Made by a program: the position numbers and the translations under genes. From a virus, in the IMG/VR virus record IMGVR_UViG_3300009509_000014, positions 9,904-73,903 of that record: a stretch of 64,000 bases of DNA; one strand, 5' to 3'. The notes beneath the pieces are model-generated. The model had not been told where the DNA came from, searched no databases, and saw only the letters and a program-made list of their open reading frames with translations. Positions 276 through 57,958 of the stretch are shown one piece after another. The first letter of the stretch is position 1; every line of letters begins with the position of its first letter.

Positions 276-1848
276 CACCATCACCTCCAGTGTCTATTTC
301 TTCGGCTATTGCATTGTCGGCCCCATTGTCTTTTCCAGCCGCCTGTGTATCCGCAGGTTTCTTGCCGTCATTAAACTCCCTGATCTGTGTTATTAATCCC
401 TTTGGGTGAGTCTCTTCATTTTTAACGTATGTCAAAAGTTCCCGCCTTTGCACAAATAAACATTCGGGACACACATAATTATACCCCCCTCCCGCTTGAT
501 AGAAGTACAAGGGGACATTGTGCTTGGAACAGATAAAATACGTTGACTCTACGTGCAGCCTTGCATTGAACCCGCATGAGCTATCAATACATATTCCATT
601 GGCTAGAGCCGAGTAACACATTGGGCAAACTTCCGAAATGCCTGCCTGTACTTCTTCTTCAACCTCAAACCAATCGCAGGCCAAACAATATGCTGTTCCG
701 TCAAGCTCTACAACCATGCCTCCGCACTTCCCACAGGCGGTGGATCTCCTTACCGCAGTAGACGTACTTTTTGAACTTTGGACAGTGGTGGCCGGAGTAA
801 CTTCTTGCCTATGAACGGCGCTGGTCGCAGCATTCTTGGCCGTCCTTCTTGCATTGTCCCAGGCATTCAGCGTTTTACCTCCAACACGCGATGACCAGAT
901 AGAGAATTTCCTTTGGACAGAACTTGTTTCTTTCGACTCTCCTGGGAATGCCACTTTTGCGTTTGAGTATCTGTTAATAGACACCCCATTTACTTCATTG
1001 TATTCAGCTAGAGGTCCAAGCTGAAACGCAATCTTCCAGTTTTTAGGAACTGAGTCTCTTGGACCAATAAAGTCTGCATGGCCCACTCCACTTGTCGTTG
1101 AAGACCATTGACCCTTTACTGTAGTCCCACCAGATTTTTTCACCTGGGCAGAACTTGACATCATAACTACGCATGGGACCATTGGTGGTTCGTCAACAAA
1201 CTCAAACCGGAGAGTGTCACGAATCATCTTCGCTTCTGGACCGTTTGGATCAAAACCCATAGCGTCTATGAAGTCATCATTCGATGCGCCGTAAGTTTGC
1301 AGTGCCAGTGGATTTATTCCCAATGCTTGTGCAAATTCCTTTAGCTGATCTCCAAGAGTTGACATCTTTGGAACATAAACCTTGGTAATTCCCTTGCCCC
1401 AAGGGACTGCAAGCCCGTGAGCGACAGCCAGAACATTTGCCTTGTTAACTCCATCAGAGTTCACCCTTGGGTGCTGCTCAAACCAATACTTGTCTCCAGG
1501 GGTGAGTGTCCCAAGGCCAAGTGCCTCCAGGTACTTTTTCGTGGCGTCATATACACAACTATTCACATGATAATGATATGTTGTTGACGTAAACCCATCT
1601 CCCCCTGGATCGACCTTCCATACCGGAAGCTTCTTGTCTCCGGTTGTCATTTCTGGCTCTACGTTCCCAAGAAGGGATTCGGCGGCAAATTCACTAATTT
1701 CGTGCATTGTGCCATTATTGTCGATCAGGTAACCTCCTGGCTCTTTTTTGACCGTGCCAGCAGTTGCTTTGAAAAATTGTTTTGCCACAACCGGAACAAG
1801 TCCGGTTTGCCCCTTGCCATCACCTTTACTTGTCGGAATTAGGGACAT
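244..1848 (-). CDS. Putative papain/OTU-like cysteine protease (candidate Ubl-deconjugating enzyme) with three C-terminal zinc ribbons
   Basis: Cys motif HVNSCVYDA and downstream His motif SGVGHADF (H-x-D). C-terminal CGKC/CLAC, CPMC/CIDSSC, CSKH/CPEC pairs. Start moved to ATG 1848, which has an AGGAGG SD. Confidence 0.55.
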   Translation of the reverse strand: MSLIPTSKGDGKGQTGLVPVVAKQFFKATAGTVKKEPGGYLIDNNGTMHEISEFAAESLLGNVEPEMTTGDKKLPVWKVDPGGDGFTSTTYHYHVNSCVYDATKKYLEALGLGTLTPGDKYWFEQHPRVNSDGVNKANVLAVAHGLAVPWGKGITKVYVPKMSTLGDQLKEFAQALGINPLALQTYGASNDDFIDAMGFDPNGPEAKMIRDTLRFEFVDEPPMVPCVVMMSSSAQVKKSGGTTVKGQWSSTTSGVGHADFIGPRDSVPKNWKIAFQLGPLAEYNEVNGVSINRYSNAKVAFPGESKETSSVQRKFSIWSSRVGGKTLNAWDNARRTAKNAATSAVHRQEVTPATTVQSSKSTSTAVRRSTACGKCGGMVVELDGTAYCLACDWFEVEEEVQAGISEVCPMCYSALANGICIDSSCGFNARLHVESTYFICSKHNVPLYFYQAGGGYNYVCPECLFVQRRELLTYVKNEETHPKGLITQIREFNDGKKPADTQAAGKDNGADNAIAEEIDTGGDGDGNDTEATAV

Positions 1849-15107: not shown

Positions 15108-15326
15108 TTAAGTTAAACCACCATCCTTGATCTCTTCGGCGTGTACGTGCTTAAGTTCCGAATTGACATTCCAGGTACTGCTAAACCCATTCATCTTTTT
15201 CAGGTCTCTGACTAACTCAAAGATACTTCTTGTTACAAGATCGTTTAACACATTCTCGTTTAGTGCAGTATTCAATATCCATGAGTCTCCATCAAGCGTG
15301 AAATTTGTTGTTATTCTTATTTTCAT
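15108..15326 (-). CDS. Hypothetical protein
   Basis: Start abuts the upstream stop (TAATG). Confidence 0.65.
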   Translation of the reverse strand: MKIRITTNFTLDGDSWILNTALNENVLNDLVTRSIFELVRDLKKMNGFSSTWNVNSELKHVHAEEIKDGGLT

Positions 15327-15778
15327 TAACCAATACCCCTTGGGTCTAATCCTTCCAGTATAGCTATTGCCCTATCGGCGTTTATAGTATGTAATCCGTG
15401 CCTGAAATTTGTTCTTACGCCAAACATTCCAGACGGAAATGCTTCTCGCTCGTCATCTATAACTACAAAGGTGTTATTCATGTCTTGGTAAAATGTACTA
15501 TCTGAGAGCCACCCCATAATCTCCCAACGTCGCTCGTATCCCTTCCAGTCTGGAGTTATATCTATCACATCTCCAGTAACTCCCCACTGTTTCAATATGA
15601 GTGTTATTTTTGGCAACCCGTAATGTTTCCAGGATGATGAAACGACAATCTTTGCACCTGTCCTGTCCGTAATCCTATTCAGTTGTTCAACACAGGCTGG
15701 ATCGGCCATATTAGTGTTTGCGTATTTCTCATTTATCAATACGCCGTCAATGTCAAGAAAGACTACTCTGTCTACCAT
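15326..15778 (-). CDS. HAD-superfamily phosphatase (Swiss-army-knife RNA-repair type)
   Basis: VFLDIDGVL, IVVSSSWK, DITP, FVVIDD. Confidence 0.85.
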   Translation of the reverse strand: MVDRVVFLDIDGVLINEKYANTNMADPACVEQLNRITDRTGAKIVVSSSWKHYGLPKITLILKQWGVTGDVIDITPDWKGYERRWEIMGWLSDSTFYQDMNNTFVVIDDEREAFPSGMFGVRTNFRHGLHTINADRAIAILEGLDPRGIG

Positions 15779-16240: not shown

Positions 16241-16727
16241 CTATATCCTCTCCTGGCCCATGAAGTTGTGACTGTGGTAGTAGAAATGCTTCACCCCAGC
16301 CAAGATCTCCAAGATTCTTTCCGTTTATGATCTCTGCGGCAGTTGCCCAACCAACATATTTATATTGCGGGAACTTGCCAATAATGAGAACATACACGTC
16401 TGTTCCTGTATCAAATTTGTTTTTTCCAACCAGAAGTTGGCCTGTTGGATAGTGGGTCGTCTTTACGTCGATTGTTACTCCGGAATGGGTTACGCAATCG
16501 TATCCCCCCTTCCTAGCCCCAACCGACAGGTCAGGCCATAGATTCATAATGGCGCAGAATGCAAACTCACCCCCAATCCCCTCCAGGTCAGTTAATTCAT
16601 TAGATTGTGGACCTTTTTTGGCGTTCACAACCCCCGCTTCCCGCGCAGTCTTGAATCTTGCCCTTGCCAACATACGCGCAACTTTCTGAGTGCTTCCGTC
16701 AAGGGTTATAGTATATTTATCGTTCAT
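16215..16727 (-). CDS. Hypothetical protein, possible PD-(D/E)XK fold
   Basis: GEFAF..GGYD...IDVKTT. The ORF-track start lies inside the tRNA; the first ATG outside it is at 16727. Confidence 0.65.
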   Translation of the reverse strand: MNDKYTITLDGSTQKVARMLARARFKTAREAGVVNAKKGPQSNELTDLEGIGGEFAFCAIMNLWPDLSVGARKGGYDCVTHSGVTIDVKTTHYPTGQLLVGKNKFDTGTDVYVLIIGKFPQYKYVGWATAAEIINGKNLGDLGWGEAFLLPQSQLHGPGEDIDGFIDRTL

Positions 16728-16803
16728 GGTGGAGCCAGAGAGACTCGAACTCTCGACCTCCACAGTGCAAGTGTGGCGCTCTCCCAAACTGAGCTACGGC
16801 CCC
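16727..16803 (-). tRNA. tRNA-Ala(TGC) with encoded CCA
   Basis: GGGGCCGTAGCTCAG...CCACA-CTTGCAC-TGTGG...TTCGAG...TGGCTCCACCA; G3:U70 pair. Confidence 0.96.
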
Positions 16804-16810
16804 TTTTTAT

Positions 16811-17180
16811 AGTCCAGCTTCGCTATGCAACTTGCGTTGCATGGATTCTGGTATGTATCTACGCCTTGGGTCAAAATTGATCCTACTCCCCCCTGTCCCA
16901 AAGGAACAGAGAGGAGTTTTGCAAGGCACCTGCCGAAAAAGCAGGGCGATCCAGGTCGTTACGTGGGCGGGTGAATCCCACTAATTTACTCTACCTTGCA
17001 ACTCCCAGCAAAAGCTAACGGACGGGATATGTTGTTCTTGTTTTATATCTAACAAGATTAACTCTGGATTTTTACCCTTCTAAATTGATATCGTTGCTTA
17101 GATCAACGTCAGTTTATAGTTGGGTCAACTGACTCCGAGTTTACGGCAACCTCTACGCACTACATGTGCTGCCTGGGACT
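16811..17180 (-). ncRNA. Large structured RNA (~370 nt) immediately 5' of tRNA-Ala, family unknown
   Basis: Ends pair (AGTCCCAG/CTGGACT). At least 8 internal helices; G-U pairs fix the minus strand. No credible ORF. Confidence 0.7.
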
Positions 17181-17256
17181 TATGGCATAATAATACTATA
17201 TTTGACATTCCAACTGTTTGTCATTGTAAGTGGTGTTTTATATTCTATTGTTGTCT

Positions 17257-17285
17257 ATACTACTGGAAGAAACTTACTTTGTTGA
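17257..17285 (-). promoter_or_regulatory. Conserved phage promoter, copy 3
   Basis: TCAACA-AAGTAAGTTTCTTCCAG(17)-TAGTAT. Confidence 0.7.
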
Positions 17286-17330
17286 GAACTCTTTTTTACA
17301 TTTCAATCCTGGTTGTTGCGATTCGGAATT

Positions 17331-17717
17331 CTACCGAGAAGAGTTTAGCGGAAACCACACAGCCTTGCCTTCTCTTTTTGCTGCCATAACCACAGGGTCT
17401 CCTTCGTCAAAGGCCATTACGCCATCTGCGTTGCTTATCATATACTTCATGTACTCTGGTTTAGTGGTCGATGTTATTGTTATCCCGCTTACAATGTCTA
17501 ATGCCCTTGGTTGAATATTAAGGTCTGGAGCGTACATATGCACCGTTAAGCCAATCTCTGCTGCTATTGATGCAATCTTAACTCCAATAATTGTATATCC
17601 CACAATAACAAGGAGTCCGTCTTTGTACTTATTTTTTGCGGCGATAAGTCCCTTCCTAACAGCGTTATGGTACTCTGGATTCCATTTTATCGCGGTGATA
17701 GCTATTTTTCTCTGCAT
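17331..17717 (-). CDS. SLOG/YspA-like Rossmannoid protein
   Basis: KIAITA...VIVG...G....AAE.GL...YMISNADGVMAF...A...GK.V pattern. Confidence 0.55.
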   Translation of the reverse strand: MQRKIAITAIKWNPEYHNAVRKGLIAAKNKYKDGLLVIVGYTIIGVKIASIAAEIGLTVHMYAPDLNIQPRALDIVSGITITSTTKPEYMKYMISNADGVMAFDEGDPVVMAAKREGKAVWFPLNSSR

Positions 17718-17744: not shown

Positions 17745-17773
17745 ATTATACTAGAACATGGGTACTTTGTCAA
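17745..17773 (-). promoter_or_regulatory. Conserved phage promoter, copy 4 (leftward member of the divergent pair)
   Basis: TTGACA-AAGTACCCATGTTCTAG(17)-TATAAT. Confidence 0.88.
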
Positions 17774-17796
17774 CAGTTGATTGATGAAAATGTGAC

Positions 17797-17825
17797 TTGA
17801 CAGTTTTTACAATAATTGTTATAAT
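17797..17825 (+). promoter_or_regulatory. Consensus sigma70-type promoter for the morphogenesis arm
   Basis: TTGACA-17-TATAAT, 9 nt before ATG 17835. Confidence 0.88.
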
Positions 17826-17834
17826 AATCACATA

Positions 17835-18545
17835 ATGACAGATAGCTTAGAACTTGTACAGATCGGCGACGAAGAGCGTCTGCCGTCTGAGTTGTTGATA
17901 GATTGGGTTTCTTTAACCGATGGGCTTCCTGACGCATGGGGTGATTGGATGCCTTTCCTTGCATTCGGTGTTCCATATAACCAGATTGCTAAGATTTTTG
18001 GCATTGACAGGAGTACGATCACTCATGCGTTAAATGGAAACAAGGATTTTGCAAGGCGAGTATCTCAAGTCAAGAAGATGATTAAGCGTCAACTGCATTA
18101 TGTTTGGCTTGATCAGAAAGCGGTGACGGCTTGGAAAAATGTTGACTATTTTCTTTCGCTTGACCCTCTTGCAAAAGATGAGGAAGACAAGTATATTATC
18201 AAAAATGAAACAACTCGTAGGATGATGTTCCAGGAAAAGGCCAAAATGACTCGGTTTGTATTGCAGCAGCTTGGGCTTCATGTCCAGCGCCACGAAGTGG
18301 TCCACCATACGCCACAGCCTATGTTCATGGGTGACGAAACTCTTGCCGCTTATGTTGTAGAGCGCGTCAGGAATGTTATGGAGTCTGGCGAAGAACGTGA
18401 TGTTGAAGTTATTGCTGCAAAGTATAAGTATATCGAAGGATATAGTGAGCAGGAGACTTTACCTATGGAGCCTATAGGTGAGGAATTAGACACTGAGGCT
18501 CCGTATGACAAGACCAATAGCGGAAGGCAATTGCGTGTCGAATAA
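17835..18545 (+). CDS. HTH protein, probable terminase small subunit
   Basis: YNQIAKIFGIDRSTITHAL helix-turn-helix; directly upstream of TerL. Confidence 0.65.
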   Translation: MTDSLELVQIGDEERLPSELLIDWVSLTDGLPDAWGDWMPFLAFGVPYNQIAKIFGIDRSTITHALNGNKDFARRVSQVKKMIKRQLHYVWLDQKAVTAWKNVDYFLSLDPLAKDEEDKYIIKNETTRRMMFQEKAKMTRFVLQQLGLHVQRHEVVHHTPQPMFMGDETLAAYVVERVRNVMESGEERDVEVIAAKYKYIEGYSEQETLPMEPIGEELDTEAPYDKTNSGRQLRVE

Positions 18546-20259
18546 TAACGACCTGTCGTTTGCAAGGAATATAGCCGAGATTTCGGAGAAGTCGCCGTTT
18601 GTTTGGGCTGTTAGTTATATAGCCCTCCCGAAGGGTGTTACTTGGACATTTGAAGATAGAAAGTGGCAGATTGACATTCTTGACGATTTGCATCCAAGGC
18701 AGGTAGGCAGGAAGCCTACTCAGATTGGATGGACAACTCTAGGGACTGCGAAGGCGCTGTGGTTTGTTTCGATGAAAAAGTCAAGGGCTATGTATACACT
18801 TCCAAGGCGCGATGATGTTACCGACTACGTTGCCACTACACTTGACCCAATGATAGAGAATAGTGATTATTTGTCTGGCAGGATGGGACGTACTAACAAT
18901 GCAAGAATGAAACGCATTGGGGATTCATTTTACCATGTTATGGAAGCGTCTGTTACTCCGCGTATGCTCCCAGTAGACATATTAATTAATGATGAAGTTG
19001 ATATGTCTGACCAGGATAATATGGAGCAATTTATTGCTAGGTTGGACGCATCTAAGTATAAGTATCACTATCAGTTTTCAACACCTACGGTCGCTGGATT
19101 CGGGATTGATGCAGCATATGAACGTTCTGATATGCGTATATGGATTGTAACCTGCAGTCGTTGCAATACAGATCAAGAGCTTGATTGGGAAGATCAGCTT
19201 GTTAATACTGGAGATGGAGTGTACCTTGCTTGTCGCGGATGTCGCCAGGAGCTTCGTTCTGAGGATATTGTAAGCGGGAAGTGGGTTGTAACTAATCCGA
19301 AGTCTGAGGTTCACGGCTACCATGTATCTCACCTTATGCTGCCATATACAAGACCTCTTGACACATTGTACCAGGAATCTAAGGTTATGGATAAAAAGAC
19401 ATTCTTTAATCTTAGGCTTGGCAGGCCGTGGAGACCAACCGGAGGTTCGATGCCAATGTCGCTGTTTCGGGATCACGCATTTTCAACTGGTCACAATCAT
19501 CAATCCCACAGAGAGAAAGGATATAGGTATTATATGGGGGCTGACCAGGGAAACGAAGTGCATACTATGGTCGGGAGAGTCCCTATAGGCGGCGACAGGA
19601 TTGAAGTTGTGTACGCGGAGCATATCAAGCCATCCCCTGGTGAAGATCAATTCGAAAGACTCGGTGCAATTGCAAGAATGTTTGATATAGACTTTGGGCT
19701 ATGTGATGCGAATCCAAACAGGCAAAGCATTTATAATCTTTGTAAGGATTTTCACGGCAAGCTTGGGGCGGCAGATATTGGCGCATACACATACCCGTTT
19801 AAGTGGAGTGGTTTCCACGGCGCATCTGCCTATAAACTTACATGCAGTAGGACAGATATGCTTGATGGGATTCGTGACGATTTGGCGAATGAACGTATTC
19901 AATTGTGGGGTAGTTGGGATAATCGCACGCAGATAATAAGAGAGATTATATCACAGTGTGGGAGTCTAAAACGTGACACCACAAAGAAAAAGTTACAAGG
20001 TGGCGGCGAGACGGTTGTAGGCGTTTGGAGAAAAACTGGCGCAGACCACTTCGCGTTTGCCCTTGCGCTTTTACGGCTTGCCGTAATCATATCGCCCAAC
20101 AGTATGAATTTTGACTTTGTTGTCGTTGGTGACGATATGCAGCAGTTGATCGATGGCGACAAGGGCGCGAAGATAGAAAAAAGCAAGATTTGGGAGGACA
20201 CATATTATAATGTTGAAGAGGATGGTACAAAAGTACCTCTTGGAACTCGTTTCTTCTAG
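18535..20259 (+). CDS. Terminase large subunit (lambda GpA-like)
   Basis: RKPTQIGWT Walker A variant, LINDEVD Walker B, FSTPT, two CxxC, MGADQG, DHFAFA. Probable GTG start at 18535. Confidence 0.92.
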   Translation: MSNNNDLSFARNIAEISEKSPFVWAVSYIALPKGVTWTFEDRKWQIDILDDLHPRQVGRKPTQIGWTTLGTAKALWFVSMKKSRAMYTLPRRDDVTDYVATTLDPMIENSDYLSGRMGRTNNARMKRIGDSFYHVMEASVTPRMLPVDILINDEVDMSDQDNMEQFIARLDASKYKYHYQFSTPTVAGFGIDAAYERSDMRIWIVTCSRCNTDQELDWEDQLVNTGDGVYLACRGCRQELRSEDIVSGKWVVTNPKSEVHGYHVSHLMLPYTRPLDTLYQESKVMDKKTFFNLRLGRPWRPTGGSMPMSLFRDHAFSTGHNHQSHREKGYRYYMGADQGNEVHTMVGRVPIGGDRIEVVYAEHIKPSPGEDQFERLGAIARMFDIDFGLCDANPNRQSIYNLCKDFHGKLGAADIGAYTYPFKWSGFHGASAYKLTCSRTDMLDGIRDDLANERIQLWGSWDNRTQIIREIISQCGSLKRDTTKKKLQGGGETVVGVWRKTGADHFAFALALLRLAVIISPNSMNFDFVVVGDDMQQLIDGDKGAKIEKSKIWEDTYYNVEEDGTKVPLGTRFF

Positions 20260-57424: not shown

Positions 57425-57958
57425 CGGTTCCTGGCGTATTGCGCGATCTGGCTAAACCTGATAGACTTCAGTTTGCCTGGAACCTTATATTATCCGCGTC
57501 CACCCGTTCGTTCAGTCGCGACATATAAGTCCTACTAGGGCAGACGCACGTAGGACTTTTTTCGCGAAGCTGGTTTTGTGGCCCCCCGATTCGCACCCTA
57601 GAGTAACCAAATCTGCAGTTGGTCTACACCACGCGCCGCTTGATTCATTTATATAACGCCGAGTGCGTGTATTCCCTTTCGTTGCTTGAGGTATCACCCT
57701 CACCACAACGAATTTCGCGCGATCTTGTTACAGGTGCCGAGAAGGTCTCATTTTCCAAGGTCGGACCTATTTACCCGTTTATTCCTGTGCAGTGTCTGTC
57801 CTCAACAGTTCATTCCGCTTCCCCTGGGGACTTATGCGATTCCGCTGCCAGGGGCTTTTGGACTTTCCTGTCGATTCATCCAGCACAAATTAAGCCCAGG
57901 CTTCAACGGGAGCCTAGCGTTACCCTGCTAAAACCATCACCCCGCTTTTGCCCTACGC
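57425..57958 (-). ncRNA. Large structured RNA (~540 nt), family unknown
   Basis: Bounded by promoter copy 5 and the terminator. Many helices and long-range complementarities; no credible ORF. Confidence 0.72.

Follow-up and report, generated by a model that had tools for sequence, protein, structure and literature searches.

Among the closest described systems, phage T4 encodes two stable RNAs, species 1 and 2 (rnaC and rnaD), which are non-coding, are co-transcribed with the phage tRNAs and are excised by the tRNA-processing enzymes of the host; they are of about 120-140 nt, and their function is not known. Phage HK022 has cis-acting antitermination elements, the put RNAs, a pair of simple stem-loops of about 70 nt that lie early in a long operon, where terminators are read through. 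ROOL and GOLLD are large, multi-helix, pseudoknotted phage ncRNAs that are often found beside tRNA genes or joined to them, and neither their protein partner nor their function is known (10.1101/2024.12.08.627333).

We analysed a 64,000-nt stretch of DNA (hereafter the window) from a 73.9-kb record of an uncultured phage that is about 60% complete; terminase and structural genes in the window identify the context as phage. A preliminary description of the window had flagged positions 16811-17180 on the minus strand as a new or divergent large ncRNA fused upstream of a tRNA-Ala gene. We conclude from comparative sequence analysis that this stretch is a real structured non-coding RNA of the minus strand, and not a chance fold, a coding sequence or a DNA signal. 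As with ROOL and GOLLD, the RNA belongs to a phage, has a complex fold and is followed directly by a tRNA gene in four of six loci. However, its helix layout is different and neither its sequence nor its structure matches theirs; the likeness is one of setting. The RNA is also smaller than GOLLD, with a core of about 310 nt common to all six sequences and a total length of about 450-640 nt across the family, compared with "many members exceeding 800" for GOLLD.

The six sequences comprise five close ones (the window, L003, L004, L005 and L013) and a distant one (L016). An IMG/VR search with the terminase returned L003, L004 and L005, whose large terminase subunits (TerL) are 79-86% identical to that of the window phage. 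These three loci carry tRNA-Ala and tRNA-Leu at the same places as the window, and each has 67-74% nucleotide identity with its non-coding stretch. Scanning metagenome contigs with an invariant two-block pattern gave a single new locus, L013. L016 was found with a profile of 20 TerL relatives on viral contigs (TerL 63% identical), and its intergenic region matched an nhmmer profile of the RNA with E = 1e-22. Covariance models were built for the 3' domain (R1) and the 5' domain (R2), and these aligned it at 100 bits and 43 bits, respectively. Some 15 other TerL relatives (P0005-P0023, 57-83% identity) have contigs that lie outside the homologue set. On the loci of distant TerL relatives the two models found nothing credible, and a match in L020 (17 bits, E = 0.07) was judged to be noise.

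Wider searches did not enlarge the set. The invariant-block pattern and a relaxed version of it, run on viral contigs, recovered only contigs already known, and two pattern scans of genome contigs yielded nothing. Protein searches with P0001 (the gene product encoded upstream of the RNA), P0002, a three-sequence TerL alignment and a P0001 alignment revealed no further homologue either. Among GenBank phages, the DNA-level search gave tRNA matches only and TerL relatives were at most 28% identical; in E. coli genomes, blastn found no match. Near-identical DNA was present in marine-sediment, mangrove, sludge and soil metagenomes from seven studies, and a further diverged relative was visible in a 15.7-kb sludge contig. 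The only RNA run with words of the phage, metatranscriptome X20, contained a 194-nt contig in a downstream HAD gene (15282-15475) and pieces of foreign tRNAs, with none on the RNA, and weighs neither way. As far as the collections searched reach, the RNA family does not reach beyond a single small clade of uncultured tailed phages, which come from sediment, soil and sludge. Between these phages, the RNA core is 73-79% identical in nucleotide sequence, which equals the conservation of the TerL gene (about 75%) and exceeds that of the neighbouring P0001 gene (64-66%).

The RNA extends from about 17250 to 16804 on the minus strand (about 450 nt) and begins about 70 nt upstream of the flagged start. 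The preliminary boundaries were too narrow at the 5' end, where a further hairpin (17223-17203) and, upstream of it, a promoter-like site were found. The elements of the RNA are as follows.

17203..17223, minus strand: P1, the 5' hairpin UGACA-11 nt-UGUCA, with compensatory changes, outside the coordinates first flagged
17170..17187, minus strand: hairpin H0 (UGCC/GGCA) with the conserved 10-nt loop AUAAGNCCCA; covariation
17157..17169, minus strand: hairpin H1 (GCAC/GUGC); the loop is of GNRA type in L004 and L005, and L016 has an insertion of 34 nt
17135..17156, minus strand: joining strand GUAGAGGUUG followed by hairpin H2 (CCG/CGG, 17146-17135)
17133-17108, minus strand: H3 (GUCAGUU/AACUGAC), 13-nt loop with an invariant CUAUA, four of seven pairs compensatory
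17107-17093, minus strand: H4 (GUUG/CAAC), 7-nt loop AUCUnnn, three of four pairs compensatory
17061..17092, minus strand: X strand, nominally unpaired, with GGGU at 17077-17074 and AUCCAG at 17069-17064
17036..17057, minus strand: hairpin H5 (UCUUGUU/AACAAGA), variable in sequence and length
17032-17019, minus strand: Y strand ACAUAUCCCGUCCG, with CCCGUC invariant in all six sequences
17018-17005, minus strand: hairpin H6, rich in G-U pairs
16919..17001, minus strand: core three-way junction closed by H7, with compensatory pairs and invariant strands
17001-16992 with 16928-16919, minus strand: H7, 10 bp, UUGCAAGGUA/UGCCUUGCAA, five of ten pairs compensatory
Inside the junction, minus strand: H8 (GUGGG/CCCAC), loop containing ACCC at 16972-16969, three of five pairs compensatory
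Inside the junction, minus strand: H9 (CCUGC/GCAGG), two of five pairs compensatory
Inside H7, minus strand: junction strands J7/8 GAGUAAAUUA and J8/9 GUAACGACCUGGAUCG, the latter with CUGGAU at 16954-16949
16885..16917, minus strand: H10, a 12-bp hairpin rich in G-U pairs, ACUCCUCUCUGU/ACAGGGGGGAGU, eight of twelve pairs compensatory including L016
16804..16884, minus strand: 3' part of lower conservation, containing H11, H12 and the 12-nt spacer that precedes the tRNA
16842-16825, minus strand: H11 (AUGCAAC-GCAA-GUUGCAU), GNRA loop, covarying in the five close sequences
16824-16816, minus strand: hairpin H12, covarying in the five close sequences

The core opens with five hairpins on its 5' side; a variable hairpin follows, and then a helix of 10 bp that closes a three-way junction, in which the long joining strands are invariant. 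All of the helices listed in the preliminary description are present in the sequence, and seven of the nine (H3, H5, H7, H8, H9, H10 and H11) are borne out by compensatory changes in the homologues. The other two are not. The supposed closing helix, AGUCC(C)AG/CUGGACU, has a 3' half (16817-16811) that is not conserved and a 5' half that belongs to H0, and the closed architecture with paired ends was wrong. UUGAU/AUCAA gives way to the covarying GUUG/CAAC of H4.

The stems change in sequence between phages. The P1 stem GACA/UGUC becomes GAUA/UAUC in L003 and CAACA/UGUUG in L004, and the H0 stem becomes AGCA/UGCU in L016, with two pairs changed on both sides. Compensatory changes occur in three of the four pairs of H2; in L016, H3 and H4 read GCCGGA/UCCGGC and CCUC/GAGG. 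At the H5 site, read directly, every homologue has a hairpin of unrelated sequence. In H10, six pairs are C-G in some of the close sequences and U-G in others. The joining regions are highly conserved. The H0 loop AUAAGNCCCA is invariant apart from N, which is U, G or A. The joining strand GUAGAGGUUG and the X-strand sequence AGAAGGG...UAAAAAUCCAGAGU do not vary in the five close sequences, the latter reading GGAAGGAU...AAAAAUCCCAGAGC in L016, and GUAAAUUAG, CGUAAC, ACCUGG and CGCCCU of the junction are identical in all six. At 2405-2660 and 2880-2990 of its contig (minus strand), L016 carries the H1 insertion, a 14-nt insertion in the X strand and a structured 3' extension.

On all three counts that the preliminary description had named for checking, namely folding energy against dinucleotide shuffles, covariation in homologues and a conserved open reading frame, its claim of an RNA stood. 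The flagged 370 nt had a minimum free energy z score of -4.43, and a 442-nt version with the 5' hairpin had one of -4.45; none of 100 shuffles folded as well, and the reverse complement gave z = -3.03. RNAalifold on four sequences found compensatory changes in 17 of 71 pairs. In a plain MAFFT alignment of the five close sequences, 94.4% of the proposed cells pair, compared with 35-42% after the partners have been displaced by 1-3 columns; both sides have changed in 20 pairs, compared with 0-3 in the displaced controls, and the covariation score was reached by none of 500 shuffles. The six-sequence alignments fitted to R1 and R2, which are biased towards structure, contain 19 of 36 (3' domain) and 13 of 23 (5' domain) compensatory pairs. 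In a formal sense these statistics are weak, because there are six sequences and five of them are close. No open frame shared by the homologues explains the region, none runs past 67 codons in the N-free sequences, and the indels in the alignment are not multiples of three.

The strand could also be assigned. H10 and H6 use many G-U pairs, which are functional only as minus-strand RNA; the earlier claim that the G-U pairs are strand-specific was correct, as the C-G/U-G switches work on the minus strand alone. Compensatory changes through such one-strand pairs indicate selection on RNA and not on DNA. This bears on a reading of the stretch as a DNA signal, such as a packaging site or a replication origin. 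The RNA lies 650 nt from a terminase small-subunit-like gene and adjoins a switch of transcription direction and GC skew, as might be expected of such a signal. However, the compensatory changes argue against it, no repeats or iterons were found, and we regard it as close to excluded.

Two long-range pairings may add to this secondary structure. GGGU of the X strand is complementary to ACCC of the H8 loop, and AUCCAG of the X strand to CUGGAU of J8/9, in all six sequences. The strands of both pairings never vary in the five close sequences. In L016, GGGU:ACCC becomes GGAU:AUCC, and AUCCAG:CUGGAU becomes CCCAG:CUGGG with U:A replaced by C:G, giving one compensatory change in each case. We tentatively propose two pseudoknots in the core, each resting on this one lineage. 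A 4-nt palindrome in J8/9 also stays a palindrome in L016 (GAUC to GGCC), and an intermolecular contact is therefore an equally good reading of the J8/9 change. As a hint of a ROOL- or GOLLD-like cage built of RNA alone, the kept palindrome is weak, as it would arise by chance about 1 time in 4. Other pairings were rejected: GAAGGG with CCC of the Y strand, as drawn by RNAalifold, fits L016 less well than GGGU:ACCC; the H0 loop CCCA with UGGG behind H6 is broken in L005; and UAAAUU with AAUUUA is not conserved.

We then compared the RNA with known families. A search of the whole window with Rfam 15 at gathering scores returned two tRNAs only, and at E<=10 no family matched the RNA in 16400-17700 or in the five homologous loci. 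None of the homologues has an Rfam match, so that GOLLD, ROOL, RNase P, tmRNA and group I introns are excluded as its identity. The ROOL model (RF03087) found nothing in either search, and the GOLLD model (RF01998), including its universally conserved 3' region, was unmatched in the window and the homologues. Of the earlier suggestion of a new or divergent large ncRNA, the first part is retained and the second, a divergent GOLLD or ROOL, is dropped. With no Rfam family and no GenBank phage match, the RNA is by its sequence a new family within the loose kind of large structured phage RNAs near tRNAs.

A resemblance to bacterial RNase P RNA deserved attention, since the RNA studied here is likewise large and lies next to a tRNA, and the candidate pseudoknots extend the likeness. 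We take AUAAGUCC near the 5' end, together with CACG-6 nt-CCUGGAU, to recall CR-I and CR-V/P4 of RNase P. The bacterial models (RF00010/RF00011) gave no match at E<=10. The CR-I candidate AAGNCCCA is the loop of hairpin H0, and its "bulged U" position, where the P4 helix of RNase P universally conserves a U, is U, G or A. A P4-like pairing of GUCCCAGG with CCUGGAU was rejected as H0 covaries and the change of CCCAGG to CCCAUG in L016 breaks the pairing. The order of helix strands is unlike P2/P4, and no S-domain or L15-like elements were recognised.

The RNA may alternatively be a ribozyme whose active site is built from the conserved unpaired nucleotides of the junction and the pseudoknots; it might, for example, process its own RNA-tRNA transcript or act on another RNA. 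The long invariant strands GUAACGACCUGGAUCG, GAGUAAAUUA, CCCGUC and GUAGAGG of the putatively pseudoknotted core would suit such a site, and many large bacterial RNAs of this size and complexity are catalytic. AAGUCC and CACG-6 nt-CCUGG also superficially recall RNase P, by our own reading. However, none of the six sequences matches an Rfam ribozyme family at E<=10, the RNase P-like motif is the variable loop described above in a different helix order, and no cleavage-site signature could be recognised. A catalytic role is accordingly quite improbable in our estimate.

Further candidates were set aside. ARAGORN finds ordinary tRNAs and no tmRNA, and weak tmRNA_permuted matches of 12-27 bits (gathering 47) fall outside the RNA, on the T-arm of the tRNA and in the downstream gene. 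The group I intron model (RF00028) had no match; H8 and two long strands stand where P7 and P3 should abut, and with 0-1 nt between H9 and H7 there is no J8/7. A decayed fragment of a host rrn operon, comprising the 16S 3' end and a spacer tRNA-Ala, was considered because bacterial rrn operons carry tRNA-Ala(UGC) as their spacer tRNA and, by our own reading, CCCGUC, GGGAGU, UUGCAA, CGUAAC and GGAUC follow the order of the 16S 3' minor domain. Yet the alignments are no better than chance. The local alignment with E. coli 16S scored 20 against a shuffle mean of 21.2 (155 of 200 shuffles scored at least as high), 103 of 200 shuffles scored at least as high with 23S, and no Rfam SSU model matched. 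A remnant of this kind is, like the DNA signal, close to excluded.

The genomic setting is constant on the upstream side of the RNA. The features that define it are as follows.

17745..17825, diverging near 17750: back-to-back promoters, both perfect consensus TTGACA-17-TATAAT
17773-17745, minus strand: promoter of the early operon, perfect consensus
17717-17331, minus strand: gene of P0001, a 128-aa SLOG/YpsA/DprA-like protein by Atlas structure matches (TM 0.77-0.85)
17257..17285, minus strand: predicted sigma-70-like promoter, -35 TCAACA (17285-17280), 17-nt spacer, -10 TAGTAT (17262-17257)
16727..16803, minus strand: tRNA-Ala(UGC), with G3:U70 and an encoded CCA

The divergent pair near 17750 serves a terminase operon to the right and an early operon to the left. 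Rightward lie the terminase small-subunit-like gene, the large terminase gene (18505-20259) and structural genes. The leftward operon is co-oriented over about 17 kb and includes genes for RNR, RecA, a sliding clamp, methylases and a Cas4-like nuclease; its order is P0001, the RNA, tRNA-Ala(UGC), DUF5843, DUF3310 and HAD_SAK_2, tRNA-Leu, then methylases onward. The RNA always occupies the second position in this early (replication) operon, directly behind the SLOG-like gene. P0001 homologues are found upstream in every locus where that flank is present, and the order terminase / SLOG-like gene / RNA is common to the RNA-bearing contigs. The gene 3' of the RNA or tRNA is not constant, being a DUF5843 protein in the window and an unrelated 190-aa protein in L016; this difference between lineages argues against a gene-specific leader.

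Several other observations were made in the window. The ATG of the gene behind tRNA-Ala overlaps the final A of the encoded CCA (16724-16730, minus strand) and has no Shine-Dalgarno sequence, an arrangement likewise seen in L003 and L004; tRNA 3' processing may create the 5' end of this mRNA, in which case the message would be leaderless or nearly so. Between the two phage tRNA genes, 15326-15778 (minus strand) encodes a protein with a HAD domain of the type found in "Swiss Army Knife" RNA-repair proteins (PF18143, E = 1.7e-22), a hint that the early operon may have a theme of RNA repair or tRNA defence. A third perfect TTGACA-17-TATAAT promoter lies at 16128-16100 on the minus strand, and a ThiF/E1-like gene at 1826-2566. 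The stretch 57425-57958 (minus strand) has no Rfam match and no sequence similarity to the RNA or to the 3' extension of L016.

The promoter-like site upstream of P1 keeps its position in all close homologues. The match is weak in the window (8 of 12, below the threshold of the consensus scan); the site is TTGACA-17-TATAAT in L004, and its -10 element is TATAAT in L005 and L013. From this we infer a transcription start near 17250 at an own sigma-70-type promoter.

As the preliminary description stated, 7 nt separate the flagged stretch from tRNA-Ala(UGC) at 16803-16727. RNase P processing at tRNA 5' ends is established knowledge, and for the window and three homologues it is reasonable to infer that cleavage at the 5' end of tRNA-Ala makes the RNA 3' end; the tRNA is likely the 3' processing signal in the window phage. 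This would be the same maturation route as that of T4 species 1 and 2, which are simpler and much smaller. A tRNA-Ala lies behind the RNA in four of six loci (the window, L003, L004 and L005), 0-12 nt downstream of the RNA and about 12-20 nt from H12. In L013, it is reduced to the T-arm and the 3' acceptor strand, joined directly to H12 (868-905, minus strand); ARAGORN calls no tRNA there, and an assembly fault is possible as the contig is short with two Ns. No tRNA occurs within 10 kb of the RNA in L016, where about 240 nt of different structure (z = -3.57) and a strong intrinsic terminator, GCGGUGGGGA...UCCCACCGC followed by a U-run, take the place of the 3' part. Unlike the T4 RNAs, this version needs no tRNA. 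Since the tRNA end and the terminator end both give a discrete RNA, the tRNA is a convenient processing signal outside the definition of the family. The fusion upstream of tRNA-Ala that was originally proposed therefore describes the adjacency in the window and does not define the RNA.

The L016 terminator abuts the ribosome-binding site of the next gene, about 30 nt before the start codon, and no promoter would fit in between. Expression downstream must therefore depend on read-through there, as would also be expected of a cis-acting element. In such a role, the RNA would be a leader of the early leftward operon that modifies the polymerase as the HK022 put RNAs do, or that senses a signal, with read-through into the replication genes. 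The position of the RNA near the start of the co-oriented operon of about 17 kb is consistent with this possibility, and the L016 layout resembles that of the put RNAs, although the present RNA exceeds them five- to eightfold in size; to our knowledge, antitermination RNAs are far smaller and simpler than the RNA core. On the other hand, the window group has no terminator behind the RNA, and its sole terminator-like match, H10, lacks a conserved U-run. The perfect consensus promoter at 16128-16100 lies further downstream, and terminators of sRNAs commonly leak in part, making a special mechanism unnecessary. Taken together, a cis-acting leader appears rather unlikely.

The best explanation, which we hold to be probable, is that the locus encodes a trans-acting ncRNA that is discrete, stable and highly structured and that forms a new family of one uncultured phage clade. 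Transcription would start at its own sigma-70-type promoter near 17250 and would also arrive by read-through from the operon promoter at 17773-17745; the 3' end would be made by RNase P at the 5' end of tRNA-Ala in the window phage and by the intrinsic terminator in L016. The X strand would then fold back on the H8 loop (GGGU:ACCC) and on J8/9 (AUCCAG:CUGGAU), docking the 5' domain on the three-way junction, so that the core would be compact and doubly knotted. Invariant nucleotides left unpaired may serve as a binding or catalytic surface for a partner in trans, for which a host or phage protein, another RNA or the RNA's own copies are candidates; in this the RNA would resemble ROOL and GOLLD. 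A search for antisense targets in the window found 22 complementary 11-mers against 14 expected, none of them in a conserved block. More ambitiously, the RNA could be the first known example of its own class of large functional RNAs in phages, either a ribozyme or a particle formed with itself or the SLOG-like protein that acts early on the host, with a core fold unseen in solved RNAs; this is an unlikely outcome.

Large, intricately folded ncRNAs are rare, and earlier cases have turned out to be ribozymes, ribonucleoprotein scaffolds and, recently, self-assembling RNA cages. The practical value of the present RNA is limited for now, as the family is small. For structural biologists, this new family, whose core of about 310 nt combines long invariant strands at the junction with two likely pseudoknots, would offer a fresh fold, and for phage biologists it is predicted to be a new early-expressed factor. 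The RNA also adds to the evidence that many uncatalogued structured RNAs lie beside phage tRNA genes.
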